A stretch of 64,000 bases of DNA. Origin: Escherichia phage AV124. Each line of letters starts with the position of its first letter. The stretch's first letter is position 1. Below, one piece after another: positions 494 to 57,267 of this stretch. Location: the sequence record OR352954. One strand, 5' to 3'. Under the pieces are notes generated by a model. The model had not been told where the DNA came from. It was given only the letters and a program-made list of their open reading frames with translations, and made no database searches. The translations under genes and the position numbers were made by a program.

Positions 494-1129
494 ATGGAAT
501 TATGGAAAGACATCCCCTCTACGGAGGGGAGATACCAAGTAAGTAATTATGGAAGAATAAAAAGGCAACGGTATTCTCGCATAAACAGCAATCAAGCAGC
601 AAGTTGGGAGCAAGTATATGAAACAAAGATATTAAAGCCTTCAAAGGACACACACGGTTACCTACAAGCTTGTTACCTTGTGGAAGGAGAGAGGACTATA
701 GCCCTGGTCCATAGGCTTGTTGCAGAAGCCTTCCTTGCACCGCCAAGTCAAGAGTTGATAGATGAATGTATGAAGGCTGGTCACAAAGTGGTTCTTGTCA
801 ACCACAAGGATGGAAACCCACTTAACAACCATGTTGACAACCTTGAGTGGTGTACTCCTTCTTACAACAATGAGTATAGTCCCCAAGATTATTCAAATAG
901 GTCTGGGGATAACTGTAAACATGCGGTTCTTAAAGAATCTGATGTTGACAAAATACTGGAACTACGTGGTAAAATGAGTCAGCAGGCCATCGCGGATATG
1001 TTCGATGTGAAACAGATCACTATCAGCAACATTTTCACCGGAAGGTCTTGGTCTTCTTATACCGGAATACCTCGCAAAGAGCGTAACAAAGGAAAACGTG
1101 CAGCTAAGACCAAACTGTTATCACAATAG
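494..1129 (+). CDS. HNH homing endonuclease (NUMOD4-like N-terminal motif)
   Basis: N-terminus WKDIPSTEGRYQVSNYGRIKRQ matches the NUMOD4 pattern of phage HNH homing endonucleases; C-terminal helix-turn-helix-like segment; RBS AAGGA upstream. Confidence 0.75.
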   Translation: MELWKDIPSTEGRYQVSNYGRIKRQRYSRINSNQAASWEQVYETKILKPSKDTHGYLQACYLVEGERTIALVHRLVAEAFLAPPSQELIDECMKAGHKVVLVNHKDGNPLNNHVDNLEWCTPSYNNEYSPQDYSNRSGDNCKHAVLKESDVDKILELRGKMSQQAIADMFDVKQITISNIFTGRSWSSYTGIPRKERNKGKRAAKTKLLSQ

Positions 1130-1461: not shown

Positions 1462-3492
1462 ATGACCGCAAAATATGAAACCGTACCTTATGCTGACTTC
1501 GTAAAAGCTCTGAAAGCTCAGTTCGCTGTCATGCAAGCGCTGGGTGCGCTTTACACGGTCGATGTACCGAAAGATGAACTGTACGACCTGTACCTTGATT
1601 CTTTCCCGGAAGGCACCAACCTGATGTATAAAGAGCGCCGTGAATACGACTGCAACTGCTGCAAGAGCTACATCCGTACTCTGGGCCGCGTAGTTGCTAT
1701 TCACAACGGCAAGCTGGTATCTATTTGGGACGTTAAAGTTGGTGGTTATTACCAAGTAGTTGCCGATGCGATGAAAGCGCGTGTTGAAAGCTCCGAGATC
1801 CGCGATCGCTTCTTCCACTTCGAAGGCCGCGTTGGTACTGAGAGCAACGTAGTTCTCCTGGAAAATGGGAAAACCAAAACCTGGACCCACTTCCATCAGG
1901 CCCTGCCTCGCGAACTGGTTAAACGTGGTGAAGATATCCCTTCTGCCCTGGGTGAGTACCGTGACAACGCAACTGTGCTGGCACGTTCTCTGAAAGATAT
2001 CGATATGGACTCTGCCGAAACGGTAATGGACCTGATCAACCAAGGCTCTCTGTACCGTGGTGATGAGAAAAAGCACATTGTTGCTGCCTTTATTAAGGCG
2101 AAACGTGCATACGACAAAACGCCGGAAGACCAGCGAATGAACTTCTGCTGGAAACAAAGTGAAACGCTGGGTAGACTGGGTCGCTTCCGTAATGATGTCA
2201 TCGGAACACTGATGAGCGATCTGGCAGAAGGTGTTGATCTTGAAGCCGCAGTGAAGTCCTTTGAAGACAAAGTCTCAGGGACCAACTACAAACGTACTAC
2301 TGCTCTGGTAACTCCGGGCATGATCAAGGCAGCACAAGAGAAAGTTGAAGCCCTCGGCTTGACTGAATCTCTGGCACGTCGCTTTGCGGTGACCTCTGAC
2401 CTGACGATCAACAACGTGTTGTTTGCTGACCGTTCTGCAAAGGCCCAAATGAACGTATTCGAGCAACTGGCAGCGTCAACCAAAAACGCGCCTAAGTCAC
2501 TGTCGAAAGTGGAAGAGATCAGCATTGAGGATTTCATCAACAACGTTCTACCGAAAGCGGACACTATCGAAGCGCTGGTTGAAGGTCGTCTGACACCGAA
2601 CCTGATGAGCTTGGTTGCCCCGGCAAACGCAGGTGCTCCTAACCTGTTCAAATGGGATAACGGCTTCTCCTGGTCGTATAATGGCGAAGTAACTGACTCC
2701 ATCAAGGAGCGTGTGAAAGCCGCTGGCGGCAGCGTGACTGGTGACCTGCGTGTTTCGTTGTCTTGGTACAACAGTGATGACCTCGACCTGCACGTATTCG
2801 AGCCTGGTGGCGGTCAAATTTACTTCGGTAACAAACGTGGTCGCTCAACGGGTACGCTGGATGTGGATATGAATGCCTATGGCAAGTCAGACGCACACCA
2901 TCCGGTTGAGAACGTTACGTGGGAAAATGAGCGTAATATCACGGAAGGTGTTTACAAGGTTGTTGTTAACAACTATAATAAGCGCATGACTGATCGCGTT
3001 GGCTTCGAAGTCCAGATGGAATACAAAGGCCAAGTGTTCAACTTCGCATACCCGCAAGCTTTGGGTAATAGCAAGAGCCAGACCGTTGTAACATTTAAGT
3101 ATTCTCGTGCGAAAGGTGTTGAAATTGTAGACAGCATCGGGCATACTAAGCAATCTAAAGAAGTGTGGGGCGTCTCTACCGAGACCTTCCAGAAAGTTTC
3201 TCTGGTGCTAAATTCTCCTAACTTCTGGGATGGTCAGACCAAAGGTAACAAACACTACTTCTTTATGCTGGAAGGTTGCATTAACCCTGACGATACTCGT
3301 GGCTTCTACAATGAGTATCTGCGTGACGAGCTGCATGAGCATCGTAAAGTGTTCGAAGTGTTGGGTTCCAAGCTCAAAGCTGAACACTCCGCTGATCAAC
3401 TGAGCGGCCTGGGCTTCTCGTCTACCCAGCGTAATGAGTTGGTTGTGAAGGTGACTGGTTCTTTCAACCGCACCCTGAAGATTAAGTTCTAA
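1462..3492 (+). CDS. large hypothetical early protein (676 aa)
   Basis: Long ORF; start taken at internal ATG 1462 (MTAKYET) with RBS AGGAGAA; no motif recognised; hairpin immediately downstream. Confidence 0.7.
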   Translation: MTAKYETVPYADFVKALKAQFAVMQALGALYTVDVPKDELYDLYLDSFPEGTNLMYKERREYDCNCCKSYIRTLGRVVAIHNGKLVSIWDVKVGGYYQVVADAMKARVESSEIRDRFFHFEGRVGTESNVVLLENGKTKTWTHFHQALPRELVKRGEDIPSALGEYRDNATVLARSLKDIDMDSAETVMDLINQGSLYRGDEKKHIVAAFIKAKRAYDKTPEDQRMNFCWKQSETLGRLGRFRNDVIGTLMSDLAEGVDLEAAVKSFEDKVSGTNYKRTTALVTPGMIKAAQEKVEALGLTESLARRFAVTSDLTINNVLFADRSAKAQMNVFEQLAASTKNAPKSLSKVEEISIEDFINNVLPKADTIEALVEGRLTPNLMSLVAPANAGAPNLFKWDNGFSWSYNGEVTDSIKERVKAAGGSVTGDLRVSLSWYNSDDLDLHVFEPGGGQIYFGNKRGRSTGTLDVDMNAYGKSDAHHPVENVTWENERNITEGVYKVVVNNYNKRMTDRVGFEVQMEYKGQVFNFAYPQALGNSKSQTVVTFKYSRAKGVEIVDSIGHTKQSKEVWGVSTETFQKVSLVLNSPNFWDGQTKGNKHYFFMLEGCINPDDTRGFYNEYLRDELHEHRKVFEVLGSKLKAEHSADQLSGLGFSSTQRNELVVKVTGSFNRTLKIKF

Positions 3493-3542
3493 TTAAACAG
3501 CCCCTTCGGGGGCTAATATTGAAATCATAGAGGAGATAAAAG

Positions 3543-3938
3543 ATGACCACTACTAACCTGTTCGAAGTTGCCACCCGTAAAAAACTGCGTTTTGCAAGTC
3601 CGAAAGGTCTACTGACCACAGAAGATCTGTGGGATCTGCCGATGACTGGTAATACCAGCCTAGATACGGTTTCCAAACTGGCTAACCGTGATGTGAAAGC
3701 ATCTGCTGAAGAAAGTTTCGTTGTCGAGGCCAGTGCTGTAAATGGCGAAGCAAACCTGAAGCTGGATATCCTGAAGTACATCATCTCGGTGCGTAAAGCG
3801 GAGATCGCGGATCGCCAGGCAGCGAAAGAGAAGGTTGAGCGTAAGCGTAAACTTCTGGACCTGCTGGCAGAGAAGGATAACGAGAAAGATGCAGCGATGA
3901 CTCGTGAAGAAATCCTGAAAGAGCTGGAATCTCTGTAA
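3543..3938 (+). CDS. hypothetical protein (131 aa)
   Basis: ORF with RBS GAGGAGA upstream. Confidence 0.6.
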   Translation: MTTTNLFEVATRKKLRFASPKGLLTTEDLWDLPMTGNTSLDTVSKLANRDVKASAEESFVVEASAVNGEANLKLDILKYIISVRKAEIADRQAAKEKVERKRKLLDLLAEKDNEKDAAMTREEILKELESL

Positions 3939-3948
3939 TCTGCCCGCC

Positions 3949-3970
3949 AAGGCCCTTCGGGGCCTTTTTG
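3949..3970 (+). terminator. rho-independent terminator candidate
   Basis: GC hairpin AAGGCCC-TTCG-GGGCCTT followed by TTTTTG. Confidence 0.55.
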
Positions 3971-3983
3971 CATTGGAGAAAAA

Positions 3984-5023: not shown

Positions 5024-6112
5024 ATGACGATTACTCGCGGCCTTATCTTCGGGAAGTTTGCACCCCTGACCAACGGGCATATTGAATTCATTCGCCAGGC
5101 GGCTTCGCAGGTTAGTGCTCTGTACCTGTTCCTGTCATATGATCAGAAATTCGTTGATGCACAACCAGAATGGATTCGTCCAAAGCTGGGGCTTGCTGAT
5201 CGTTATCGTGACCTGCTGGATGTTATTGCCGATGAGGGACTTGACAACGTGAAGGTAGACTACGTTGATGAGTCGAATATCCCAGGATACCCTGAAGGCA
5301 GTGCTGCCTATGCAAAACTGATCCGTGAAAAGCAACCGTTCGTTAAGTACGATTTTGCTTTCTCTTCTGAGCCGGAGTATGAGTCTTACTTCAGTGAGTT
5401 CTTCCCTGAAGCGAAGCATGTAGTTATCGACGCAGAACGTAAAGCTGTTCCTATCTCAGCCACGATGATCCGTAATGATCCGTACAACAACTTCTACAAC
5501 CTAGCGTGGCCTGCACGTAAGCGCTTCATGAAGAAGGTTGCCATCATTGGTGTTGAGAGTACGGGCAAGACAACCCTGACAAAACATCTGGCGCATACCT
5601 TCGGTGCTGGTTGGATTCCTGAGATCGGACGGCTTATCTGTGAGCGTGAATATCACTCCAGTGAGTTCGCAATGTCTCGTGAAGACTACCTGCGTATCGC
5701 TATGGAGCACCGCCTGAAGGAGATGGAGTTGGCTGGTTGGGGTGATCGTGGGGTTATGTTCTCTGACACCACAAACCTGATCACACACTTCTCTGGTGTT
5801 TGTGCTGATAAGATCGACTACGCAGACCTGTTGTTCCGGACACTAAGCCGTGAAGAGAGCTACAACTTCTATGACCTGTTCCTGCTCCTCACACCAGAGG
5901 TTCCGTGGGTTGCTGATCCTCTTCGCTTGCAGGATACACCAGAGAAACGTAAAGAAACCCATTCTTTGCTTGACACAATGATCAGAGCATCTTACGATAC
6001 AAGCAAGGTGGTGGTTATCTCCGGCAGTGATTACGAAGAGCGTACTCAGAGAGCTGAAGAAGCTGTCCGTAAATTGCTGAATATCAAAGGAGAACAAGAT
6101 GGATCAAACTAA
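5024..6112 (+). CDS. bifunctional NMN adenylyltransferase / ribosylnicotinamide kinase (NadR-like, no DNA-binding domain)
   Basis: N-terminal nucleotidyltransferase motif GKFAPLTNGH (HxGH type); second half has P-loop IGVESTGKTT as in the NadR kinase domain; RBS AGAGGAG. Confidence 0.8.
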   Translation: MTITRGLIFGKFAPLTNGHIEFIRQAASQVSALYLFLSYDQKFVDAQPEWIRPKLGLADRYRDLLDVIADEGLDNVKVDYVDESNIPGYPEGSAAYAKLIREKQPFVKYDFAFSSEPEYESYFSEFFPEAKHVVIDAERKAVPISATMIRNDPYNNFYNLAWPARKRFMKKVAIIGVESTGKTTLTKHLAHTFGAGWIPEIGRLICEREYHSSEFAMSREDYLRIAMEHRLKEMELAGWGDRGVMFSDTTNLITHFSGVCADKIDYADLLFRTLSREESYNFYDLFLLLTPEVPWVADPLRLQDTPEKRKETHSLLDTMIRASYDTSKVVVISGSDYEERTQRAEEAVRKLLNIKGEQDGSN

Positions 6113-6524: not shown

Positions 6525-6718
6525 TGGCGATCAAAGTAATCTCCGAAGGTACTCCGTTTACGGCAACGTGTAAGAGTTGCAGGTCTGTGGTTGAATACAA
6601 TTACACGGATACCTATGTATATTCCTACACTGTTGCTCGTGGAATGCGGGTAGGTCATGGTGCGTACCGCTGCATCACCTGTCCTGTGTGCTCATCAAGG
6701 ATCAGGCATAATGGCTAA
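6524..6718 (+). CDS. small Cys-rich protein, zinc-ribbon-like (64 aa)
   Basis: CxxC ... CxxC arrangement (CKSC ... CPVC). Confidence 0.5.
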   Translation: MAIKVISEGTPFTATCKSCRSVVEYNYTDTYVYSYTVARGMRVGHGAYRCITCPVCSSRIRHNG

Positions 6719-7064
6719 GGTGCTCAACTTCTACCACATTGGTAAAGTGATCCCTGAAAATGCCGAATACATGGGGCGAGCAATGCCCCATCTAGGCCTG
6801 AAGCAATCTAAATTCGCTAACCCATATAAGTTGTCGAAGGATGAGCCTCGTGGAGCCACCATTGAGCGCTATCGCGTGTGGTTGTGGCAACAGATCCGTT
6901 CTGGGAAAATTACTATTCAAGATCTTCTTGACTTGGATGGTAAAGACCTTGTATGCTTCTGTAAACAGCCGAACAAAGAGGTGGCATGTCATTGTGATGT
7001 GATACTTGCGGCAATCGAATGGGCAAAACAGAGGAAGACAAATGGCAATTCATGCAAAAAGTAA
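6711..7064 (+). CDS. hypothetical protein (117 aa)
   Basis: Start at ATG 6711 (MAKVLNF) overlapping the upstream stop; conserved Cys/His cluster. Confidence 0.5.
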   Translation: MAKVLNFYHIGKVIPENAEYMGRAMPHLGLKQSKFANPYKLSKDEPRGATIERYRVWLWQQIRSGKITIQDLLDLDGKDLVCFCKQPNKEVACHCDVILAAIEWAKQRKTNGNSCKK

Positions 7065-7531: not shown

Positions 7532-7758
7532 ACAAATACTACTTCGCCTTCGGAATGAACCAAGAAACGAAGGATGGTATGTCTCTCGGTAATTACTACG
7601 TCTGCATCGAAGCCAAACACCATTACGATGCCAGATTTGAGATGTTCGATGCTCGTGGCAGTTCTTGGTCTTTTTGCTACACAGAAGAAGAATTTGCTGG
7701 ACAACCAGAAAAATATGGATTAAAGTCTATTTCGTTAGACGAAGTTCGTATCCGATAA
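7528..7758 (+). CDS. hypothetical protein (76 aa)
   Basis: ORF in track. Confidence 0.5.
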   Translation: MNKYYFAFGMNQETKDGMSLGNYYVCIEAKHHYDARFEMFDARGSSWSFCYTEEEFAGQPEKYGLKSISLDEVRIR

Positions 7759-7778
7759 ACAATAGGAGAAAAGATTAC

Positions 7779-8480
7779 ATGATGAATCTATACGTAAAAA
7801 CAACCTGGACAGACTTCTATGGTTGGACAAAACTCGAATACCTTTGGCTTCTAATCTGTTCTGCATCCATTGCAACGGTCTCTATCGTTACAGGTGGTAC
7901 GGTGGTGGAGTTTATTTCCTCCGTCACAGGCATCGTCGGTGCGATTCTGGTTGCGAAAGGTAAACTTTCCAGCTACTATTGGGGCTTCATTGCCACGGTT
8001 CTGTATGCATATATCTCTTTCACGTACAAGTTGTACGGTGAGACGATTATGTACACCCTGTTGTTCACCCCCATGCAGGTCATTGGCGGGGTGATCTGGG
8101 CGCGTAAGTTAACCGTCTCTGCGGATGGTGAGCGTGCGGATGTCATAAAGAAATATCTGACCACAAAACAGCGCTGGATTGTTGGTATCGGGACATTGGT
8201 GACGATCGGATTATACGCCGAGTTCGTTAGCCTATTGAAAGGAAGTATGCCGGGTCTAGATTCTGCGACAGCAATCCTGTCAGTTCTAGCAACCTACCTG
8301 ATGATGGTTCGTTATGCAGAACAATGGCTGATTTGGCTACTGGTGAACACTGTTGCAATTGTTATGTGGGTACAAGCTACGATTCATCATCAAGGAGCTG
8401 GTTCTGCAATTTTGGCTATGTGGGTCACATTCTGGCTCAACTCTCTTTATGGTTGGTATAAGTGGAGAAAGAATGGCTAG
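7779..8480 (+). CDS. pnuC: PnuC-like nicotinamide riboside transporter
   Basis: Polytopic membrane protein (233 aa) with RYAEQWLIWLLVNTVAIV and C-terminal LYGWYKW, resembling conserved PnuC motifs; RBS AGGAGAA. Confidence 0.7.
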   Translation: MMNLYVKTTWTDFYGWTKLEYLWLLICSASIATVSIVTGGTVVEFISSVTGIVGAILVAKGKLSSYYWGFIATVLYAYISFTYKLYGETIMYTLLFTPMQVIGGVIWARKLTVSADGERADVIKKYLTTKQRWIVGIGTLVTIGLYAEFVSLLKGSMPGLDSATAILSVLATYLMMVRYAEQWLIWLLVNTVAIVMWVQATIHHQGAGSAILAMWVTFWLNSLYGWYKWRKNG

Positions 8481-20569: not shown

Positions 20570-23092
20570 TCAGAAAACGTTGATTCGAAAAGCCGGTAAC
20601 CAGTCGTAGAGGGTTACAGATGTATCGTATACCCACGCGATTCCGGCAGAAGATCTTACACACCCTCGTGCGCCCAAGGTCTTACCAGAAGGTTTGACAG
20701 TCGCACCGCTTTGAAGAGGATTTTCTACTGTCGCATAGGAAACCCGTCCAAAACGGCCAGTAGGAGCAGATGCTAGGTTAATCAGCACGCCCTTTCCGTC
20801 CGAGCTGATCGCTATGCTAGAAATGGCAGGGGGTGACGCCGATTCATCTGTGTAGTTAAAACCGTAATTTGCCAGGCCATCAATACTAATATTGGTCGTG
20901 TCTATCACCAGGTTGGTATACGAAGGGATGTTTATTTGTATTTGCGTGGGGGAGTTCCATACAAAACCATTCGGAACCATACCATACCAGCCGCTCGTAA
21001 ACCACTCCTGGATAATTGCTCTTGCCACAGCCGCTCCACGTTTATTTTGTGCAGCACAGGTGAGGTGCAAACCGTCCGTAATAAAATCGTACTGATACAA
21101 GGTATTTACGCAACGGAACTGCTCACGGCCATGTAGGTTGTTTACTGACATCCTTACACGCTGGCCTGTAAACGCACCATGCCCGTCATTGACATACCCC
21201 AGCTGGGTGATGGCGATGATCGGCGGTTCGTTTTGACCAGTCCTTGCCATGATGTCACTGATGACTTGCCTCTGGTACTGCTTCATCCTAGACTCATACA
21301 TCCCTTCCCGCAACCCAGACCAGTCCTCGTCTGACTCTCCTTGCATCCAGTCAACGCAGAGAACAATCGGCAGCCAGCCACGCGCTTTACAGGCCGTCAC
21401 GCAGTCTTCGATTGAATCCAGCATGTATTGGTACACGGCATTACCGCGTTTTTGGTACTCGTATGCCTGCCCGGATTGGGCACACACGATTGATAGTGTG
21501 CGCGGCATGATTCCGGTAGCTGCAGCCATATCGCGAATGAAGGTGTTTGCCAAGCCAGATGCTGCAGTCTCCTTATCAGTGCCGCTTACTGCCTCAACCA
21601 GTGGCACCAGAGTAGTGCTGCGTGCCCCCGTTCTCCTGACCCCGCCAGATAGCATAAACGCGTTATCAGGATAAACTGGCGTCGACGCGATAATGGTTTG
21701 ATCCGCATCTGGGCAATAGCCGCGTGCATTAGACTGCCCGGCAGTTACAAAAATGAAGCATACCGGAACATCTTCTGAATACGGGTAAGCCGTAGACCCT
21801 GACAAATGGAGTCCATACTCAGGGAGGATAGTCATATCATCGCCGCCACCCCCTCCACTCTCCTGGTTAACAAGAACCAAGCCGCTATCGGAGTAGATCC
21901 AGTGATGGCCGCCAACCGTGTAAGCCTCAACGATCTGGTTTGTCGTGGCGTCAACGATCATGCGCCACACCTTTTCACCGCCGATAAATTGCGGCACTGC
22001 CCCCTCAGTTCCGAGCGCATATAACTCAGCCTCTTGCGGCGTGAGCACTTCATAATATTTTCCGTCAGGACCAATTTGTATTAACCGCCCAGCGGCGTTT
22101 AAAAAAGGAGCCACTCTTTTTGTCTCCGGGTCATAACCCGCCAGGGCCACACTGTTTGATGATATCTGGTATGCGTAGTCGTCACGAGCTATCAACCTAT
22201 CTGTCGGATTAAGAACCCCTGAATTATTCACATACTCATTTGCTAGGGTTGAGTCTGAAGAATTTCTAACCCAACAATGTGCCCCATTTGGGATATTACC
22301 TGCCGCAACCTCATTCTGGGCTACCGCCAGCGATTCATATCCCCGGATGGTATTTATAATGGCCCCTGTTCCTGGAACAGCCGCGACTTCTTGAGCAACC
22401 CCTGCATTATTCTTGTACACTTTGAACGCTACAGAGCTACCACTTCCCTGAGGCACTTGGAAATATTGTCCATCCGTAGTTGCAGCAAGACCTTCACTAA
22501 CAGATGCGTATAAGTTTCCCAGCTCAGAGGCCTGCAATGCATATGCTTGTGCCTCATCTCTCGCATCTTCTGCTTGGTCTTTTGCCTCAACTGCTTCGTT
22601 TTTGATTTCTGTTACTTCATCGAGCAGACTCAAACCACCAACAGTTACCCATGCAGATGCTGAAACACCACCTGTTGTAGACGGGGTGGATTTTTCGGGT
22701 ACTGTCTTGGGGAATGTCCCTCCCCATGTGTAACATTGCGCTCCTGCAATATGCCAAATAGCATCGTTGGCATAGGTTAATGTTGCACCATCTTCGAAAG
22801 AACCTTCTACCAAAGTTAGCCCAAGATCATGAAGTGCTCTTCTCCATAATTCTCTCTCATTTGCACGGGCAGTGTCAAGACTTTGTTGGACATGTGTCCC
22901 ATCAGAGGTCCCTATAAGGGAGGCACCGCCATCCGCCGCCAAATCCCCTTTGTTAGCCAAGTCTAAGTCGGAGATAACCTGGGAGACAGTGGCCTTTTTG
23001 GTCTTATCTGGTTGTTCTACAACAAGGTAGTCGTCTCCGACCACTTGGGTTGCGGAGGGTAACTCCGCAATTTTAATTGTATCAAAGGCCAT
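20570..23092 (-). CDS. tailspike with SASA-type carbohydrate esterase domain
   Basis: Start at ATG 23092 (MAFDTIKIAELPSAT...) with RBS GGAGGG; shared N-terminal anchor motif; esterase signatures FVTAGQSNARG and WMQGESD. Confidence 0.65.
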   Translation of the reverse strand: MAFDTIKIAELPSATQVVGDDYLVVEQPDKTKKATVSQVISDLDLANKGDLAADGGASLIGTSDGTHVQQSLDTARANERELWRRALHDLGLTLVEGSFEDGATLTYANDAIWHIAGAQCYTWGGTFPKTVPEKSTPSTTGGVSASAWVTVGGLSLLDEVTEIKNEAVEAKDQAEDARDEAQAYALQASELGNLYASVSEGLAATTDGQYFQVPQGSGSSVAFKVYKNNAGVAQEVAAVPGTGAIINTIRGYESLAVAQNEVAAGNIPNGAHCWVRNSSDSTLANEYVNNSGVLNPTDRLIARDDYAYQISSNSVALAGYDPETKRVAPFLNAAGRLIQIGPDGKYYEVLTPQEAELYALGTEGAVPQFIGGEKVWRMIVDATTNQIVEAYTVGGHHWIYSDSGLVLVNQESGGGGGDDMTILPEYGLHLSGSTAYPYSEDVPVCFIFVTAGQSNARGYCPDADQTIIASTPVYPDNAFMLSGGVRRTGARSTTLVPLVEAVSGTDKETAASGLANTFIRDMAAATGIMPRTLSIVCAQSGQAYEYQKRGNAVYQYMLDSIEDCVTACKARGWLPIVLCVDWMQGESDEDWSGLREGMYESRMKQYQRQVISDIMARTGQNEPPIIAITQLGYVNDGHGAFTGQRVRMSVNNLHGREQFRCVNTLYQYDFITDGLHLTCAAQNKRGAAVARAIIQEWFTSGWYGMVPNGFVWNSPTQIQINIPSYTNLVIDTTNISIDGLANYGFNYTDESASPPAISSIAISSDGKGVLINLASAPTGRFGRVSYATVENPLQSGATVKPSGKTLGARGCVRSSAGIAWVYDTSVTLYDWLPAFRINVF

Positions 23093-23290
23093 TTTTTGCC
23101 CTCCAAGAAGTTTATTTAGAATAGTCAATGATGACTGTCATATAATTGTTAAAGCTTTACATGGCAGGGGTGGGCTATCATACCCGCAACGGTAGGCTGT
23201 TCTTCCCTAACCGTTGCAGGCCGTAGTTAGTGTGAATTGTTGCGTATGTCATTATTGTGGTCTATTTATACAAACAATAATATTCATAAA

Positions 23291-25057: not shown

Positions 25058-26701
25058 TCATGTTCCAAATCCAACAATTCTATATTTCAAGGATGAGTTG
25101 TTGGTTGTGATGGAGACAACAACACCACCATCGGTTGTCCCATCTACTGTGGACAAAGTAAAGAGTCTTGAACCACCTGTCGTAGAACCAGTTCCTGGTG
25201 TCTGGTCATGATTACCGATAACCGTATAAGTGACCACCCCTTCCCGGTTAGTAGCAATCAGTTCAACAGCCTGCGCCCAACTTGTTTGAGCAGAGGTCCA
25301 AACATCGATAAAAATTTTCTTGGTTGTCCGGTTCGGTATGGTGATAAGTTGAGTATCTCCGGCGGCATAAAGCCCTTTAGTCCTAGTGTGATATTCGATC
25401 CATTGTAGATTATAACCCGGACTGGAAGTTGTCGGTTCTTGAGAGGTGTAGGACCATCTTGTTACTTCCCCGACTTGGCTAACATGCTCAATTTTTCTTG
25501 AAAACTTATCTCTCAGCACGAAACTATAAGACCTCACACCATTGCTTTGGAGGTCTACGTCAGCCTCTTTAGGATTTGGGTAGCTCCCTGTACCACCTAC
25601 TTCGAACAGATCTTTTTTGCCAGCATCTGGCGCAATCCATCCATTTTTATCCATGTTGGCAAAGAATTCCTCAAATGCAAGCCAATACGATTCTTGATGC
25701 CCCAGAAGGTTGGGGTGAACAGTTTGCCCACTGTTAAACAATGAGCTAATGCCATACTTGGCAAGGGCATCGAACCAATATTTTTCGACATCGATAAGAA
25801 CACAACCCATTTCTACAGCAATCTGGCGAATAGCATCGTTTCCTCGCAAGAAACGATGGCCCACCGTAATGGTCACACCATTCCATACTAAATCTACATT
25901 TGACTCGGCAGCGGAAGGGATGATACTATCATCAGAAACGGGGGCCGGGGAAGGGGAAGGCCATACTTGGGCGACACCCGGAGGCATACTCCAAGAATAA
26001 ATGGGGATATTAGGATGTGGGGTGGTAGTAAGAATAACGTCACCACCTGCATCCCTAACATTTCTGATTGCAGCTCTTAATCTTTGCTTAAACCCATTCT
26101 CGTTGAAAGTCTGACCTGCGTTGTAGTTTGCTGTGGGAAAATCATTCATCCCATACACGAATAAGGCAATATCTGGATATGTCCCAGTAGCAACAACAGC
26201 AGGCCATTGGTCAACCAAAAAATTATTGATCGTTGACCCGTTTACAGACCTATTTACAAAGGATAGTGGATATATCCCACCTTTATTAATGGATTTGTTA
26301 AAGAATTCAAAGAATTTAGCCACAGGAGCTTGGGTGGCAGGATCTGGTAATGTTGCACCATTCCCCACAGAAGACCCAAATCCGTACAGTAGAAACTGCG
26401 TCTGCCCAGAGGCACCATGACGATAGGCGGTTAGTTTGTTAATAAGTTGGGGAAAGAGTGCCTGTGAATTCCCCGAAGCAGCCCTAATGGATTCCTCAAC
26501 TGTTTTACCTGTGGCTGTCCCTATAAGGCTCGCACCATCATCATCAGCAAACATAGTTTCTCTGGATATATCCATATCAGAAACTAGTTGACTTAAGGTT
26601 GTCTTTTTCGTAGCATCTACTTGCTCCACAACAAGCAGGTCAGTCCCTGCAAGTGTAGAGGATGGAGGAAGTTCCGAGATCCTTGTGGTTGGTATTGACA
26701 T
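25058..26701 (-). CDS. tailspike with SGNH/GDSL-type hydrolase-like domain
   Basis: N-terminal anchor MSIPTTRISELPPSSTLAGTDLLVVEQVDATKKTT; candidate SGNH blocks (YGFGSS, YGMND); RBS GGGAGAA. Confidence 0.55.
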   Translation of the reverse strand: MSIPTTRISELPPSSTLAGTDLLVVEQVDATKKTTLSQLVSDMDISRETMFADDDGASLIGTATGKTVEESIRAASGNSQALFPQLINKLTAYRHGASGQTQFLLYGFGSSVGNGATLPDPATQAPVAKFFEFFNKSINKGGIYPLSFVNRSVNGSTINNFLVDQWPAVVATGTYPDIALFVYGMNDFPTANYNAGQTFNENGFKQRLRAAIRNVRDAGGDVILTTTPHPNIPIYSWSMPPGVAQVWPSPSPAPVSDDSIIPSAAESNVDLVWNGVTITVGHRFLRGNDAIRQIAVEMGCVLIDVEKYWFDALAKYGISSLFNSGQTVHPNLLGHQESYWLAFEEFFANMDKNGWIAPDAGKKDLFEVGGTGSYPNPKEADVDLQSNGVRSYSFVLRDKFSRKIEHVSQVGEVTRWSYTSQEPTTSSPGYNLQWIEYHTRTKGLYAAGDTQLITIPNRTTKKIFIDVWTSAQTSWAQAVELIATNREGVVTYTVIGNHDQTPGTGSTTGGSRLFTLSTVDGTTDGGVVVSITTNNSSLKYRIVGFGT

Positions 26702-50990: not shown

Positions 50991-51067
50991 TGGCGGGACG
51001 GGGTGGATTCGAACCACCGACACCATGATCTTCAATCAAGTGCTCTACCAAACTGAGCTACCGACCC
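50991..51067 (-). tRNA. tRNA-Phe (GAA)
   Basis: D-arm GCTC-AGTTTGGTA-GAGC, anticodon loop TTGAAGA, T-arm GGTGG-TTCGAAT-CCACC; CCA encoded. Confidence 0.75.
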
Positions 51068-51073
51068 GATGTG

Positions 51074-51158
51074 TGGTGGGCAAGGAGAGACTCGAACTCT
51101 CACGTCATAGGACGCCAGAACCTAAATCTGGTGCGTCTACCAATTTCGCCACTTGCCC
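51074..51158 (-). tRNA. tRNA-Leu (TAG)
   Basis: Anticodon arm CCAGA-TTTAGGT-TCTGG, long variable arm, T-loop TTCGAGT; CCA encoded. Confidence 0.75.
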
Positions 51159-51403
51159 TAATCGATCCTTCGGGAGAATGCCACCCTCGGACAAATACCA
51201 TGATAAGCACTTATAGGCAATATACTCATCAATCCTCGCTCCGTTTTGATATCGTTACCGCCACAAGGACGCATTGCGAACCATCAATATCCGAAGACTC
51301 GCCTTATCGTTGTACACCGAGTCGGGCTTCCTCTTTATTAGTTTGCTCTGTTACGCCACACGTAAATCCTGCAAGCCAGAAGGTCTCTACAGGAGAGCAA
51401 ATA

Positions 51404-51476
51404 TGGTGTGGATGGAAGGACTCGAACCTACATCAAACGGCTTCGTAGACCGTTGCCTGTCCGTCAGGACACCCAC
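51404..51476 (-). tRNA. tRNA-Arg (ACG)
   Basis: Anticodon arm ACGGT-CTACGAA-GCCGT, T-loop TTCGAGT, acceptor GTGGGTG/CATCCAC; CCA encoded. Confidence 0.75.
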
Positions 51477-51482
51477 ATAATT

Positions 51483-51559
51483 TGGTCTCCATAGAGTGAC
51501 TCGAACACTCAACCTCCTGGTCCCAAACCAGGCGCTCTACACTATTGAGCTACACGGAG
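51483..51559 (-). tRNA. tRNA-Pro (TGG)
   Basis: D-arm GCTC-AATAGTGTA-GAGC, anticodon arm CCTGG-TTTGGGA-CCAGG, T-arm GAGTG-TTCGAGT-CACTC; CCA encoded. Confidence 0.8.
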
Positions 51560-51657
51560 AGAAGTGCAGAATTTTAATTATCCCAGACACTGCAACTGGT
51601 ATTGCTGGCTAGCTAATAAGTTCTCCAAGCAAAGTTTTAATTTGCAAGGAGGATGTT

Positions 51658-51734
51658 TGGCGGGACCGAAGGGAATCGAACCCTCATTTTCCGCATCGAC
51701 AGTGCGGCACCATTACCTTGTCAGCCACGGCCCC
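51658..51734 (-). tRNA. tRNA-Asp (GTC)
   Basis: Anticodon arm CCGCA-CTGTCGA-TGCGG, T-loop TTCGATT, acceptor GGGGCCG/CGGTCCC; CCA encoded. Confidence 0.8.
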
Positions 51735-51741
51735 ATAAATT

Positions 51742-51826
51742 TGGCGACGAGCGTAGGAATTGAACCTACATAGAGCTAATGCTCGCGGATTAACAGTCCG
51801 CCGTTCTACCAATGAACCAGCTCGTC
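51742..51826 (-). tRNA. tRNA-Asn (GTT) with enlarged variable region
   Basis: D-arm GTTC-ATTGGTA-GAAC and anticodon arm GCGGA-CTGTTAA-TCCGC; variable region is 15 nt with a GAGC-ATTA-GCTC mini-hairpin; CCA encoded. Confidence 0.65.
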
Positions 51827-51886
51827 ATTTAAATACTTTATCAGTGAAAACAACCTTTTGCAAGAATTATTTTAACTGATTTAATT

Positions 51887-51962
51887 TGGCGGGAAGGGAA
51901 GGATTTTAACCCATCGTCTCTTCGCTTAAAAAGCGAATGCCTGACCGCTCGGCTACCTACCC
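51887..51962 (-). tRNA. tRNA-Lys (TTT)
   Basis: Anticodon arm TTCGC-TTTTTAA-GCGAA, T-loop TTAAAAT; acceptor has one mismatch; CCA encoded. Confidence 0.65.
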
Positions 51963-51970
51963 ATATTGTT

Positions 51971-52059
51971 TGGAGGAGAGCAACAGAATCGAACTGTCAC
52001 CGTATCTCTACGGTGGGACCGGGTTCAAACCGGAGCCTGCACCATGCAGCCTGCTCTCC
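51971..52059 (-). tRNA. tRNA-Ser (TGA)
   Basis: Anticodon arm CCGG-TTTGAAC-CCGG, long variable arm, T-loop TTCGATT; CCA encoded. Confidence 0.7.
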
Positions 52060-52064
52060 AAAAT

Positions 52065-52150
52065 TGGCGGAAGATGCAAGGGTTGAACTTGCACACCCTT
52101 TCGGATGGCGGTTTAGCAAACCGCTGTGGCTACCATTTCACCAATCTTCC
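52065..52150 (-). tRNA. tRNA-Ser (GCT)
   Basis: Anticodon arm GCGGT-TTGCTAA-ACCGC, long variable arm, T-arm GCAAG-TTCAACC-CTTGC; CCA encoded. Confidence 0.75.
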
Positions 52151-52296
52151 AATTGTTCTTTAATTTCTTTACGAAGATCTGCTTTTTCTTTCGCACGAGT
52201 AATAGGGACTGATTGAATCTCTTCTGCAACACCACAGTTACTACCGTGAAGTCTACAGCGTCCAAACACTTTCTTGCAACGCAAAAGTTTCTGCAT
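52138..52296 (-). CDS. small Cys-containing protein inside the tRNA array (52 aa)
   Basis: Start at internal ATG 52296 (MQKLLRCKKVFGRCRLHGSNCGV...) with RBS GGAGG at 4-nt spacing; three Cys in 13 residues; the 3-prime end of the frame runs into the adjacent tRNA-Ser. Confidence 0.35.
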   Translation of the reverse strand: MQKLLRCKKVFGRCRLHGSNCGVAEEIQSVPITRAKEKADLRKEIKEQLEDW

Positions 52297-52311
52297 AAAT
52301 CCTCCATAAAG

Positions 52312-52401
52312 TGGCGGAGAAGGAGAGAATTGAACTCTCAAGCCGTTTTACCAGTCAGCACCTTTCCAAGGTGTTTTCGTCACCTATCGATTTGCTTCTC
52401 C
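52312..52401 (-). tRNA. atypical type-II tRNA, possibly tRNA-Ser (GGA)
   Basis: Acceptor GGAGAAG/CTTCTCC and T-arm GAGAG-TTCAATT-CTCTC are clear; candidate anticodon arm ACACC-TTGGAAA-GGTGC; D-arm irregular; 90 nt; CCA encoded. Confidence 0.45.
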
Positions 52402-52405
52402 ATAT

Positions 52406-52482
52406 TGGGGTGGCTAGTGGGACTCGAACCCACATAGGACTGCCTCACAAGCAGTGTCATTATCCAGTTATGATATAGCCAC
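52406..52482 (-). tRNA. tRNA-His (GTG)
   Basis: Anticodon arm ACTGC-TTGTGAG-GCAGT, T-arm GTGGG-TTCGAGT-CCCAC; CCA encoded. Confidence 0.7.
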
Positions 52483-52554
52483 ATCAAAAGGCACTCCCAG
52501 CTTTCGGGTGAATTTCAAGAGCGGCTGCGCAACCACTTGAAGTACCTTTTGATA

Positions 52555-52630
52555 TGGCAGGAAGATCAGGACTTGAACCTGAACTACGGATTTCAAAGAC
52601 CCGTGTGCTAACCAATTACACCATCTTCCT
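52555..52630 (-). tRNA. tRNA-Gln (TTG)
   Basis: Anticodon arm CGGGT-CTTTGAA-ATCCG, T-loop TTCAAGT, D-arm GTGT-AATTGGTTAG-CACA; CCA encoded. Confidence 0.75.
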
Positions 52631-52785
52631 ATAATCGGTGAGGGCGCCTGAAACCGAGCCAGGCTAAGTATTGGACTGCAATCCTCAACTTATTTTGTTG
52701 CCGCCATGCTTACTTATGACCGACAAGAGTTCCCGTTGCAGCGGTAGATCATAGTCATTTTCAACATCCGGTCGCCCCCATTATT

Positions 52786-52859
52786 TGGAGCGTCTAGAGG
52801 GAATCGAACCCTACTCTGCGAGGCTTGGAAGGCCTGCGACACACCTCGTGCTTAGACGC
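52786..52859 (-). tRNA. tRNA-Trp (CCA)
   Basis: Anticodon arm AGGCC-TTCCAAG-GGCCT, T-loop TTCGATT; CCA encoded. Confidence 0.7.
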
Positions 52860-52866
52860 TTTAAAT

Positions 52867-52941
52867 TGGTGGGAGTATCTGGGATCGAACCAGAGACCTC
52901 TCGATTATCGGTCGAGCGTTCTACCGCTGAACTATACTCCC
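52867..52941 (-). tRNA. tRNA-Ile (GAT)
   Basis: D-arm GTTC-AGCGGTA-GAAC, anticodon arm CTCGA-CCGATAA-TCGAG, T-arm TCTGG-TTCGATC-CCAGA; CCA encoded. Confidence 0.8.
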
Positions 52942-53074
52942 ATTAATTGGTGCGCCCCTTTATAAAAATGTCTTCAAGCGGAGTCTTTATTGAAACAATA
53001 AATTTACTCACTCACCTAATCTTATTTTTACTCAGATGGACGTCTTTAGCGGAGCGTCCTCCACCTTCTTCGTT

Positions 53075-53161
53075 TGGTACGCCGTGATAGAGTCGAACTA
53101 CCCGAGCCTTTTGAGCAACAGATTTACAGTCTGTCCCGCTACCCCTACGGTCTAACGGCGC
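53075..53161 (-). tRNA. tRNA-Tyr (GTA)
   Basis: Anticodon arm ACAGA-CTGTAAA-TCTGT, long variable arm, T-loop TTCGACT; CCA encoded. Confidence 0.7.
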
Positions 53162-53163
53162 AT

Positions 53164-53514
53164 TTAGCCTTGTTTGAACTGAACAATATCTGTTGTGAAT
53201 GGCTTACTCATAGGAGTAGATTTCTTATCATCAACATTAGTTGTTTCAGCTTCTTCATTCTCTTCATCGAAGTAATCAGAAAGCATTTGTTCACCTTTCT
53301 CAATTACAAATCGAGCAATATTTTCCCTGATGTTGTCCTTTGTTGTGGCGCTTGTCATAAGGTCTTTTAGCACTTTATGAGCATCAGGAATCATAGCAAT
53401 CATATTGGTCTTAAGGTCAAGGATATTCTTCTCAAGCTGAATAGCATTAGACTCTTCTTTAAGGGGTCTACCTTTTCCTCTACGACGCTTTGTAAGTTGT
53501 TGTTTTACTGCCAT
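53164..53514 (-). CDS. hypothetical acidic protein inside the tRNA array (116 aa)
   Basis: ORF with ATG start; Lys/Glu-rich. Confidence 0.5.
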   Translation of the reverse strand: MAVKQQLTKRRRGKGRPLKEESNAIQLEKNILDLKTNMIAMIPDAHKVLKDLMTSATTKDNIRENIARFVIEKGEQMLSDYFDEENEEAETTNVDDKKSTPMSKPFTTDIVQFKQG

Positions 53515-53599
53515 AATAACCCCACTTATTAATATTATCAGATTTAAATTTATCTGTCAAGGGTCATTTTATCATTTTTTATAAAAATATTCAACAACT

Positions 53600-53674
53600 T
53601 GGAGCACGGTAGGTGAATCGAACACCTGACATTTCTTTTGCAGAGAAAGCTGTTGCCACTCCAGCAACCGTGCT
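53600..53674 (-). tRNA. tRNA-Cys (GCA)
   Basis: Anticodon arm TTTCT-CTGCAAA-AGAAA, T-arm AGGTG-TTCGATT-CACCT; CCA encoded. Confidence 0.75.
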
Positions 53675-53789
53675 TTCGGGGGACCCGATTATTTCAATTC
53701 GCTTCCACACATTCGGGTCAAGACGTGTCCTATAGTCTTTCGACGCTTCCACAGCTCGGAGTAAACCCGTCCCGGCTGTCCTGTGAATT

Positions 53790-53871
53790 TGGCGAAGGCG
53801 GCAGGATTCGAACCCGCATACTCCAATTACTCGATTAACGACGGGTTAGAAGCCCGTTGAGATACGCCCTC
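53790..53871 (-). tRNA. atypical tRNA-like gene (anticodon-like loop TCT, no recognisable D-arm)
   Basis: Acceptor GAGGGCG/CGCCTTC and T-arm GCGGG-TTCGAAT-CCTGC are clear; only one further hairpin ACGGG-CTTCTAA-CCCGT, followed by a 23-nt unpaired region; CCA encoded. Confidence 0.4.
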
Positions 53872-53877
53872 TTAAAC

Positions 53878-53966
53878 TGGTGCGGGATGAGGGATTCGAA
53901 CCCTCAAGGCCTAGAGGCCTACGAAGTCTTAAGCCTCGTGTGTACTGCCAATACCACCAATCCCGC
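53878..53966 (-). tRNA. tRNA-Leu (TAA)
   Basis: Anticodon arm CGAGG-CTTAAGA-CTTCG, long variable arm, T-arm GAGGG-TTCGAAT-CCCTC; CCA encoded. Confidence 0.75.
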
Positions 53967-54148
53967 AGAAATCTATTTTGTGAAGTCCCGATGTCCTGAC
54001 AACCGCCGTTGTCTCTCCGAAGCGCCTCTACTTGCGAAGAAGAGCCTACGCCATCCCTTTCATCAACTTGATATCAAAGCCGACACAGAGATCACACCCC
54101 ACTAGATGCAGGAGATTTTAAGTGTTTCAGAACCTCGCAGAATAGATT

Positions 54149-54257
54149 TGGAGCAGGGTGGTGGAATCTAACCACCTATGTATTTAGCCATGCTGTTAGT
54201 TCTGGCATATTTTTCAGGTCTGGATGGACCTCGCGGTTGACAAACCGCCTACCCTGC
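54149..54257 (-). tRNA. oversized tRNA-like gene (109 nt) with internal insertion
   Basis: Acceptor GCAGGGT/ACCCTGC, D-arm GCGG-TTTGTCAA-CCGC, T-arm GGTGG-TTAGATT-CCACC; stem AGGTC/GACCT closes a 6-nt loop; about 37 extra nt before the T-arm; CCA encoded. Confidence 0.35.
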
Positions 54258-54259
54258 AT

Positions 54260-54334
54260 TGGCTTCTCGAACAGGAATCGAACCTGTACCGTCCCTATCG
54301 TGGGACCGCTCTAACCAAAGTAAGCTATCGAGAA
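54260..54334 (-). tRNA. tRNA-like gene with 6-nt anticodon-position loop
   Basis: Acceptor TTCTCGA/TCGAGAA, D-arm GCTT-ACTTTGGTTA-GAGC, T-arm ACAGG-TTCGATT-CCTGT; stem GTCCC/GGGAC closes loop ACGATA; CCA encoded. Confidence 0.5.
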
Positions 54335-54340
54335 ATTGTT

Positions 54341-54416
54341 TGGTGCTCGCAGTAGGACTTGAACCCACGACCTTCTCCTTACAAGGGAGTTGCTCTACCA
54401 ACTGAGCTATACGAGC
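54341..54416 (-). tRNA. tRNA-Thr (TGT)
   Basis: D-arm GCTC-AGTTGGTA-GAGC, anticodon loop CTTGTAA, T-arm GTGGG-TTCAAGT-CCTAC; CCA encoded. Confidence 0.75.
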
Positions 54417-54817
54417 AAGAAATGCTGTTTCCGATTAACAGCCTGGAGGAGTCAGTTAGCCATATCTTGTGAGCTAAGATCCTATATCCAGGATTTAAGT
54501 AATCAAAGAAATTTTAGCTTTATGGTTTAGAAGTTTCAAGTTTAAACATTAAGCTTTGAACGATAATCTTTGAATGCTGAATGTTGAAGTCTTTCGAATT
54601 CGCGATTCGACAATTTCGATCAAGCCGCATCATTGTGCGGTCTGACGGAAAGATATGTTTAAGTATCATCCTATACGATTATGTTCGGAGCAGTTTAACC
54701 TCCGGCCCCGGTAGAGGCAAGATGTTTCTGACTTCGCTAACCAAAAACAGCATTTAAAAACTTTACCAGCTATCCACAGGAATTACAAGATGTTAATCAA
54801 GAATTCCTGCAAATATT

Positions 54818-55465
54818 TTAGATTGATCCTTCAATCTCTACTTCAGTCCGTGCATTTGACTCGGAAAGAACAAAGTCAACGTTAGACTTAAAGTCTTCAA
54901 TCTCTGCTTCCAGAGAACGAATGCGATCTGCCAGGCCCAGTGGATCGACAATGGAAGGAGTTCCCATGCTACGAACTGGCGCTTCTACTACAGCCAACTG
55001 TGCAGCGTCTGGCGCTTTATCACGTTGGACATATGGAGCACGAGCTGCTTCAAGCTTCGCTTCGAATTCCTGTGTATCACGGTTCAGGCGAACCTGAGCA
55101 TGATTATACTGAGACTTCAGTTTGCCAAGCAGAAGCTCTTTGAAAACGATGGTGCGTTTACGCTCAATCGCCTGAGCTACGGTCATAGACTCGCCAGCGA
55201 TCTCAACTTTTGTTACAGCGTTTGACTGAACAACTTTCGCCTTCAGGTCGTCGCGAACAGCCAGAAGATCCTGAACACCCTGGAAGTCTGCCTGAGCAGA
55301 TTTCTCGAAGTCCTCAACGCTCTGGATAGAGCCTGGGATCTGACGGTTTGCGTCAGTGCCTTTCGCGATGTGAATCGTGTTCAGCGCTTCGATACGCTTC
55401 TGAATCTTTTCCTCAACCTTGGTCAGGGTAGCCAGAGCGCGGGTTACAGACATCTTAGTAGACAT
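54818..55465 (-). CDS. coiled-coil protein (215 aa)
   Basis: Ala/Glu/Lys/Arg-rich heptad-like sequence. Confidence 0.5.
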   Translation of the reverse strand: MSTKMSVTRALATLTKVEEKIQKRIEALNTIHIAKGTDANRQIPGSIQSVEDFEKSAQADFQGVQDLLAVRDDLKAKVVQSNAVTKVEIAGESMTVAQAIERKRTIVFKELLLGKLKSQYNHAQVRLNRDTQEFEAKLEAARAPYVQRDKAPDAAQLAVVEAPVRSMGTPSIVDPLGLADRIRSLEAEIEDFKSNVDFVLSESNARTEVEIEGSI

Positions 55466-55539
55466 AGAATTCTCCTCTCATGAAATTTAAAATTTAAGTT
55501 ACTTCAAATATTTGCCGACATCCGTGTCGGCACTACGCA

Positions 55540-56151
55540 TTAGTTTTTGCCAGTATTAACAACTACGCCCTGGCGGTTAGCATCAGCTTTTGCGATTTCC
55601 AGACGGGTTTCGCGTTCAGCCTTCAGATCACCACGCGCTGCTTCAAGCTGTTCGGTCAGCATTGCAATGCGGTCATCCTTAGCCTTGCTATTAGCAGTAA
55701 GTTCTGCAATTGCAACCTTGTGAGCAGATTCCAGATTTGCCTTAACCGCATTCAGTTCGATTGCAGCGCTACGTTTAACGTCGGCAACTGCGCTTTCTAC
55801 AGCTTCAGCATTGTTCTGCTGAGAGATCGCCAGCTCTGCACGAAGGTCTTCAACAACACCCGGTTCTACAGCTACAAGGCCGCGAGATTTCAGGATAGAG
55901 TTCAGAACGGAATCTTCGTTTTCCAGAACTTTGATCTTCAGCTTGGATTTTTCTTCAGCCAGTTTTTCGTTGAACTGAACTTCAATTTGTCCCAGTTCCT
56001 GCTGCTTAAACTGAATTTCCTGACTGATCTTTTCAGACCCTTCTGCCAGAGATTGCAGTTCAGCGACTACTTTAGTCAGACCAGTAGCGGCAGTGGTTAC
56101 TGCTTTAGTGGCACGTTCAGTTACGGAAATTACAGTTTTAGAATCAGTCAT
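55540..56151 (-). CDS. coiled-coil protein (203 aa)
   Basis: Ala/Glu/Lys-rich heptad-like sequence. Confidence 0.5.
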   Translation of the reverse strand: MTDSKTVISVTERATKAVTTAATGLTKVVAELQSLAEGSEKISQEIQFKQQELGQIEVQFNEKLAEEKSKLKIKVLENEDSVLNSILKSRGLVAVEPGVVEDLRAELAISQQNNAEAVESAVADVKRSAAIELNAVKANLESAHKVAIAELTANSKAKDDRIAMLTEQLEAARGDLKAERETRLEIAKADANRQGVVVNTGKN

Positions 56152-56189
56152 TAAGTTATCCTTTGCGTTAAATTAGGTTTTAAATACTA

Positions 56190-57264: not shown

Positions 57265-57267
57265 CTT

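Follow-up and report, generated by a model that had tools for sequence, protein, structure and literature searches.

Introduction

The stretch of DNA from Escherichia phage AV124 studied here (sequence record OR352954; 64,000 nucleotides (nt), hereafter the window, with positions counted from its first letter) carries, at 1462-3492 on the + strand, a gene for a protein of 676 amino acids (aa), and the question raised by this locus is what so large a protein does. A preliminary description, made from the letters alone, had presented it as a protein without recognisable motif, set behind a consensus promoter and followed by a stable hairpin, and had proposed it as a candidate for early host takeover or anti-defence. 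Our analysis places the gene in a different context. It is near certain that the 676-aa open reading frame (ORF) is a long-form member of the DUF8224 family and the first gene of a two-gene operon, the second gene of which had been missed. The family itself is already catalogued; what is newly seen here is the two-gene cassette, the architecture of an insert carried by the long forms, and a set of core residues common to both clades of the family.

A member of the DUF8224 family

There is no doubt that the 676-aa gene is real, as had been proposed: it has an ORF, a Shine-Dalgarno sequence and more than 5,000 homologs at 90% clustering. In the ORF reading of the + strand the frame runs from an ATG at 1462 to a stop codon at 3490-3492. 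The mechanical ORF call begins at GTG 1372 and is longer than the 676-aa version, and the start at 1462 is favoured because homologs with 99% identity are also 676 aa long. The profile of PHROG 1735, a family of unknown function, matches the protein at E 6.8e-298 over residues 9-676, and PF26675 (DUF8224) is precomputed on all the homologs listed, including the 99%-identical relative. The statement that no motif can be recognised is thus superseded, since the protein is DUF8224 and its acidic motifs belong to a DUF2135 domain, whereas the statement that its function is unknown holds: no assignment came from Pfam, NCBIfam, PADLOC, PHROG or PDB sequence searches. The 676-aa protein had no match in our copy of Pfam-A (which is without the PF26675 model), in NCBIfam or in PADLOC, where the defence models of PADLOC-DB v2 gave 0 families at E <= 1, and PDB sequence and profile searches with the whole protein returned chance matches only (cohesin SA-1, E 0.18; a RING finger, E 0.2).

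The family is both large and widely dispersed. A profile search of 1.84 billion representatives recovered 9,602 clusters at 50% identity, 2,283 of them at E <= 1e-30, and nearly all are 660-690 aa long and match end to end. By tblastn, homologs were found in 552 phage records, which include Ackermannviridae (CBA120 orf153), Mydovirus and other Vequintavirinae, Caulobacter phiCbK-like phages, phiRSL1, Bacillus BCP78/Bc431, Microcystis Ma-LMM01, Cellulophaga phi4:1 and Vibrio phages; the distribution spans cyanobacterial and marine phages, prophages and some bacterial chromosomes. In the genome collection, full-length bacterial copies are 41-52% identical to the window protein and are carried by dozens of Micromonosporaceae species, myxobacteria, Bradyrhizobium, Sericytochromatia, Saccharibacteria and others. 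Identity of 40-50% over ~670 aa extends to Actinomycetota, Myxococcota, Cyanobacteriota, the candidate phyla radiation (CPR) and other lineages.

GenBank names these proteins mostly "hypothetical", with sporadic labels such as "DNA-directed RNA polymerase", "SAP DNA-binding domain" and "coil containing"; the "SAP DNA-binding domain-containing" label occurs in one record. In the literature searched, no paper mentions PF26675, DUF8224 or PHROG 1735/2018, and nothing useful was found on DUF2135/YfaP. One record, OY979426.1 (Klebsiella phage vB_Kpl_K54lambda1.1.1), has an annotation table that seems shifted against its sequence: phosphoesterase, RNA ligase and other features stand under its 97.6%-identical match and do not fit a DUF8224 gene, and nearly all of its coding sequences carry a partial or pseudo flag.

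A conserved two-gene operon

The following features make up the cassette.

1375-1403, + strand: sigma70-like promoter candidate TTGACA-N17-TAAAGT, matching 10/12 consensus positions
1451-1455, + strand: Shine-Dalgarno AGGAG, read from the sequence, 6 nt 5' of ATG 1462
1462-3492, + strand: coding sequence, 676 aa, long-form DUF8224 (PF26675; PHROG 1735), from the ORF and its homologs
3498-3515, + strand: intercistronic GC hairpin CAGCCCC-TTCG-GGGGCTA with a UUCG loop, -12 kcal/mol
3530-3535, + strand: Shine-Dalgarno GAGGAG of the partner gene, read from the sequence
3543-3938, + strand: coding sequence, 131 aa, obligate partner of long-form DUF8224 (PHROG 2018), from locus comparison
3949-3974, + strand (stem 3949-3966): terminator-like hairpin AAGGCCC-TTCG-GGGCCTT followed by the T-rich tail TTTGCATT

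The evidence for the operon comes above all from the second gene. About 50 nt after the 676-aa gene and on the same strand, window positions 3543-3938 match the partner profile at E 1.1e-61, and in an Actinoplanes chromosome and a Rhodoferax prophage the gene next after DUF8224 has 42-44% identity to the 131-aa product; orf151 of CBA120 (probability 99.9%) and gp013 of Ma-LMM01 (probability 99.3%) are this same partner. Profile searches recovered a partner homolog downstream on the same strand at 88/88 loci and, in a diverse set of viral and bacterial loci, at 105 of 109; of the four misses, two fall at contig ends and two have non-ATG starts, the latter recovered by other searches. Altogether ~200 long-form loci were examined, and the partner is present in every informative one. 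The gap between the two genes is at most 100 nt in 84 of the 105 loci, the rest having small insertions, and no other gene family occurs as a conserved neighbour in more than 8 of the 109. The partner has a conserved N-terminal part of ~60 residues (F-E-x-A-x-R-x-K-x-R-F ... L-W-D-L-P-L ... S-F-V) followed by a C-terminal half that is helical and charged; neither Pfam nor the PDB yielded a relative of the partner. As for the intergenic space, an extra ORF of ~70 aa lies between the two genes in KP12 (KP12_76; 5192-5404 of locus L003) and in Hena1 (gp178; 3234-3446 of locus L261), and several viral loci have gaps of 200-1,500 nt.

The transcription signals agree only in part with what had first been described. 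The consensus promoter is present at 1375-1403, its hexamers being separated by 17 nt (the -35 and -10 hexamers of sigma70-type sites are spaced 16-18 nt apart), and its position inside the 96-nt gap 5' of the 676-aa gene is sensible; it is, however, not statistically exceptional. In the first 8 kb there are 16 sites of promoter quality (>=9/12), where shuffles give 9.9 +/- 3.5, and because such sites are not clearly enriched, the match alone is not beyond chance. The stable hairpin reported after the gene also exists, but its fold z-score is -0.88, with 34 of 200 shuffles folding equally well, and the terminator scan called it on the minus strand only. No + strand U-run of an intrinsic terminator stands directly after the 676-aa ORF, the tail of the 3498-3515 stem being AATATTGAAAT. 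This hairpin separates two genes that are always inherited together; it is no convincing terminator and does not end a monocistronic unit. The hairpin and T-rich tail at 3949-3974 look like the site that probably ends the two-gene unit. A comparable arrangement is seen in Erwinia phage Hena1 (73% identity), whose homolog also has a sigma70-like site upstream, and where the sole + strand hairpin with a T-tract lies directly 3' of the partner gene, with none before it. An operon composed of the promoter-like site (1375-1403), the DUF8224 gene (1462-3492), the partner (3543-3938) and the terminator-like stem (3949-3966) is well supported.

A conserved core carrying a removable insert

The 676-aa protein consists of a conserved core (residues 1-407 and 564-676) interrupted by a beta-sandwich, and the segments that can be delimited are as follows.

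1651-1662, + strand: Cys64-x-x-Cys67 (CNCC), a putative Zn-binding pair by conservation, together with His143 (nt 1888-1890)
1927-2274, + strand: six-helix domain, residues 156-271
2275-2397, + strand: conserved basic segment, residues 272-312 (N-Y276-K-R278 loop, helix-hairpin-helix, R306-R307)
2683-3150, + strand: DUF2135 (YfaP-type), TerD-like beta-sandwich insert, residues 408-563
3151-3489, + strand: C-terminal alpha/beta module of the core, residues 564-676, with E618, R628, E632 and G649

Two features of the core stand out. Of 268 long forms, 266 have C64, 266 have C67 and at least 95% have H143, while C66 is variable; judged by this pattern, C64-x-x-C67 and H143 look like a metal site. 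Residues 272-312 form the sole consistently basic segment, with a median net charge of +3. The core also holds two small alpha/beta modules with E618, R628 and E632. Fold searches found no solved structural relative of the core, the long-form model matching through its sandwich only.

The acidic motifs that had been taken as possible metal or nucleotide binders, DDLDLHVF (residues 439-446; nt 2776-2799) and LDVDMNAYG (residues 466-474; nt 2857-2883), can now be placed exactly, and both lie in the insert, where D440, D442, D467, D469, E483 and N484 are at least 95% conserved among the 268 long forms. An hhalign comparison of the family profile with E. coli YfaP (probability 97.1%, E 6.8e-11, 35% identity) covers residues 423-510 and thereby spans both motifs, and NCBI names some bacterial homologs "YfaP family protein". 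The Pfam model PF09906 (DUF2135) does not match the window protein at E <= 1 and matches 2 of 70 relatives, with a best E of 0.0011. In the structural model, residues 408-563 show the TerD beta-sandwich fold (Foldseek E 7e-4 against 2qng); at the sequence level no Pfam TerD match was obtained, and PDB profile searches gave no TerD chain at E <= 10. Of the earlier suggestion, the metal-binding part is the one that this homology supports: since the PDB entry of Klebsiella TerD describes calcium binding, it is a reasonable inference that the acidic motifs of the insert bind cations.

That the insert is a separable unit is seen in a second group of proteins. In Xanthomonas phage Elanor, a 545-aa protein matches the family over its whole length (hhalign 99.8%) while skipping exactly the sandwich, and it belongs to a short-form subfamily (~540 aa) of at least 324 clusters, likewise tagged PF26675. 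When both forms are aligned together, more than 80% of the short ones have a gap at query residues 408-563, and the C-terminal module (564-676), kept in both forms, adjoins residues ~313-407 in the short ones. Both clades conserve the following residues at 85% or more: C64, C67, F70, G75, W89, G125, H143, R199, D253, Y276, R278, R306, R307, W398, N400, W404, P586, E618, R628, E632 and G649. The partner goes with the insert: it was found at 0 of 83 short-form loci, 81 of which have at least 1.5 kb of downstream sequence, and these 83 loci have no common alternative downstream gene. In the core alignment the long and short forms are reciprocally monophyletic, and the link between insert and partner therefore rests on one event. 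Repeated co-gain of the two was considered and rejected on the same ground.

Genomic setting and timing of expression

The region is 97-98% identical to that of Klebsiella and Raoultella Mydovirus phages (Vequintavirinae, rV5-like) such as P8734, Ro1 and KB57. In Ro1 the order is primase/helicase, DNA polymerase, two hypothetical genes, DUF8224, a NadR-like nicotinamide mononucleotide (NMN) adenylyltransferase and PnuC, and the window has the same layout, with a NUMOD4/HNH gene at 494-1129, the NadR-like gene at 5024-6112 and PnuC at 7665-8480; the structural module lies on the opposite strand from about 12 kb of the window. This Ro1-like layout places the DUF8224 gene in a block for replication and nucleotide metabolism. 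In other phages, DUF8224 adjoins clamp-loader genes (CBA120), stands downstream of ribonucleotide reductase (RNR) and upstream of RusA, polynucleotide kinase (PNK) and DNA ligase (Elanor), or has RecA and RNR nearby (Ma-LMM01). Further neighbours were noted at two loci: a faint Macro-domain protein directly upstream and a DUF2828 and DUF7788 protein downstream at locus L090 (7348-7890 and 11688-13097), and, in Rhizobium phage B1VFA (5500-6933 and 8886-11377 of locus L176), RtcB directly upstream with NMNAT-NUDIX and NAMPT downstream. None of these recurs across loci.

Chromosomal copies have a different environment. In Micromonospora tulbaghiae the pair is flanked by an ABATE/zf-CGNR gene and the urease operon, and throughout Micromonosporaceae, Plantactinospora and Actinoplanes included, it lies amid ordinary, non-prophage chromosomal genes; between these genera there is no synteny beyond the two genes. 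Other bacterial copies are in prophages. As regards timing, the infection transcriptome of Ma-LMM01 puts gp014 and gp013 together in subclass B5 of the "middle" (replication) class, which holds the replication, repair and nucleotide-metabolism genes and takes in 162 of 182 genes, while the early class consists of gp054-gp063 (PMC5780444).

Proposed function and alternative explanations

Based on our results, we tentatively infer that the long form and its partner work through a metal-dependent mechanism on nucleic acid or nucleotides, docking of the partner included. The core would be a metal-dependent enzyme or binding factor. It is very highly conserved, both from phylum to phylum and in phages and cells alike, which points to a universal intracellular substrate, and the replication/nucleotide-metabolism setting, together with the basic segment rich in Y and R, suggests that this would most likely be nucleic acid or a nucleotide. 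The protein would act during the replication/nucleotide-metabolism phase of infection and would do the same job in the bacteria that keep the pair. The small partner may bind the long form, probably at the DUF2135 insert, and its helical C-terminal half could oligomerise or regulate the complex, with Ca2+ or some other divalent cation as a possible trigger. A broader formulation, which we advance with more doubt than confidence, is that DUF8224 and its partner constitute an unrecognised metalloprotein complex of new fold that serves a common step of phage DNA, RNA or nucleotide processing and has been domesticated by Micromonosporaceae and other bacteria.

Several observations weigh against this proposal. 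The searches found no catalytic motif or fold of a known nucleic-acid or nucleotide enzyme. The protein as a whole is mildly acidic save for residues 272-312, so that nothing points to an extensive surface for binding nucleic acid. Each of the suggestive neighbours (RtcB, PNK/ligase, RNR, clamp loader) comes from a single locus, and none recurs statistically; the breadth of the Ma-LMM01 middle class makes it weak evidence of timing. Finally, no fusion of DUF8224 with the partner was found among ~500 family members, and the association of insert and partner reflects one evolutionary event followed by universal retention, with no repeated co-gains.

The alternatives explain parts of the same evidence. 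The most serious, although unlikely in our judgement, is a conflict cassette, that is a mobile defence, superinfection-exclusion or Ter-like stress system with the sandwich as cation or ligand sensor and the core as effector. It would account for a self-contained two-gene unit without conserved neighbours, for its occurrence in prophages, and for Micromonosporaceae copies that are ~85% identical to one another yet have variable, non-syntenic flanks, once beside a transposase; moreover, the Ter system of stress and phage resistance includes proteins with TerD domains (PMC7824862). Yet no PADLOC model matches, conservation across phyla is far above what is usual for defence proteins, retention in the replication block of virulent lineages (Ackermannviridae, Mydovirus) is apparently vertical, the bacterial neighbours observed are housekeeping genes rather than defence islands, and the short form works without the sandwich. 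The proposal of the preliminary description, an early phage-specific takeover or anti-defence protein made from a strong host-type promoter, is one that we now find improbable. A large protein of unknown function, conserved in virulent phages, with a sigma70-like site upstream and NAD+-salvage (counter-defence-type) genes within a few kb, as also in two other phages, invites such a proposal, but the gene sits in a replication module, the promoter match does not exceed chance, the Ma-LMM01 homolog is outside the early class, and many bacteria, Micromonosporaceae among them, hold stable, non-prophage chromosomal copies. Anti-defence proteins are, besides, usually small and fast-evolving, whereas DUF8224 is 40-50% identical across phyla. 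The protein is probably not an early host-takeover factor.

An accessory role in RNA or tRNA repair, in which the core would bind broken or modified tRNA or RNA and work with RtcB, PNK or ligase-type enzymes, is equally improbable. Its attraction lies in B1VFA, which has an RNA ligase nearby in addition to RtcB, in the PNK and ligase of Elanor, in a Hena1 ORF that bears a histidyl-tRNA synthetase annotation and lies ~0.3 kb beyond the partner, and in the richness in tRNA genes of many carrier phages (16 in the window); all these hints are single loci or sub-threshold scores, the neighbours do not recur, and the Micromonosporaceae copies are without RNA-repair neighbours. A PARP-like or NAD+-linked enzyme with a zinc module, a helical regulatory domain and a catalytic domain is very improbable, and computationally it is close to refuted. 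It was suggested by Pfam PARP_reg matches in 2 of 70 long forms (best E 5.9e-05), by the local look-alikes GRVGT and FYNEY spotted by eye, by NAD+-salvage genes nearby in three phages and by the faint Macro match beside one homolog. Against it, hhalign of the family profile with the helical domain and ADP-ribosyltransferase domain (HD+ART) of human PARP1, a query verified as 100% identical to PDB chains, gave a probability of 0.2%, phmmer gave nothing, PARP_reg was not seen in 50 short forms in which the match was sought again, and there is neither a conserved H-Y-E or R-S-E triad at the right spacing nor an ART fold. Lastly, the chance that the protein is the DNA-directed RNA polymerase named in the GenBank records of Ro1, KNP2, BIS47, Seu621 and Gloob is close to nil: the evidence consists of deposited product names, for which the Seu621 paper offers no evidence, while most records say hypothetical. 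Pfam RNA-polymerase families match neither the protein nor any of 120 relatives, and no T7-like palm or double-psi beta-barrel with DxDGD was found; the label has no sequence or fold support, and the conserved acidic clusters belong to the DUF2135 sandwich. The DUF8224 protein is not an RNA polymerase. An OTU or papain-like cysteine peptidase, considered for the D-C-N-C at a helix N-terminus and H143, was also rejected, as the candidate nucleophile C66 is variable and the conserved pattern is CxxC.

If the broader formulation given above is right, DUF8224 and its partner would supply an accessory function, nearly universal in phage replication modules, that has so far been missing. In any case, DUF8224 is among the larger and better-conserved blocks of phage "dark matter", and it comes with experimental handles: a fixed small partner, a removable DUF2135/TerD-like insert and a short list of core residues. 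The present assignment also sets right two labels, "RNA polymerase" and "SAP domain", that are spreading among the genomes of Klebsiella phages used for therapy.

Other features of the window

Beyond the cassette, the window holds several features of separate interest. The homing-endonuclease-like gene at 494-1129 (+ strand; NUMOD4 and HNH_3, with a helix-turn-helix) lies just 3' of the DNA-polymerase region, and the annotation of that region in KP12 is split into several pieces, suggesting that mobile elements have inserted around the polymerase gene. The phage also has NAD+-related genes in two sets. One pairs a NAPRTase/NAMPT-family gene (58606-60336, - strand) with an adjoining phosphoribosyl-pyrophosphate (PRPP)-synthetase-like gene (60344-61144, - strand), and presumably resembles the NAD+ reconstitution (counter-defence) pathway; the other comprises the NadR-like NMN adenylyltransferase, with AAA_28 (5024-6112, + strand), and the PnuC transporter (7665-8480, + strand), between which a DUF4326 protein is encoded (E 4e-18; 6657-7064, + strand). 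An array of 16 tRNA genes at 50994-57341 (- strand; Rfam gathering threshold) stands between the packaging and NAD+ genes. The Rfam scan of the window found only these distant tRNAs and no RNA near the cassette. Two tail-spike or fibre candidates on the - strand, one with Tail_spike_N and SASA (sialate O-acetylesterase-like) at 20570-23128 and one with a GDSL lipase/acylhydrolase at 25058-26701, carry deacetylase-type domains and may be depolymerases that modify capsule or lipopolysaccharide.

Comparison with known systems

Human PARP1 (Zn3/WGR/HD/ART) is unlike the window protein, which is without the ART fold and the catalytic triad. TerD proteins (Klebsiella, 2KXT; Streptomyces SCO6318, 2QZ7) have 14% identity to the window insert and are single-domain components, ~190 aa long, of Ter operons, whereas here the fold is inserted in a 676-aa protein that has a different partner. 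E. coli YfaP shares with the insert the motif W-x-N-x-D-L-D-L-H-V...P-x-G...Y...G-x-L-D-x-D, but it is a 258-aa protein from an unrelated operon (with yfaS, alpha-2-macroglobulin-like), and only the inserted sandwich is shared. The short forms of Xanthomonas phages Elanor and DoCa10, Rhizobium phage B1VFA and Burkholderia prophages have the same core and conserved residues as the long form; unlike it, they are without the DUF2135 sandwich and the 131-aa partner, and they form a separate clade. The closest likeness is to the named long forms: CBA120 orf153, Ma-LMM01 gp014 and AUE23454.1 of Raoultella phage Ro1 are 52-99% identical over their full length and have the same domain order, and orf153 and gp014 share with the window the downstream partner (orf151 and gp013, respectively). 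With no material difference from these phage proteins, the window protein is a typical member of long-form DUF8224.

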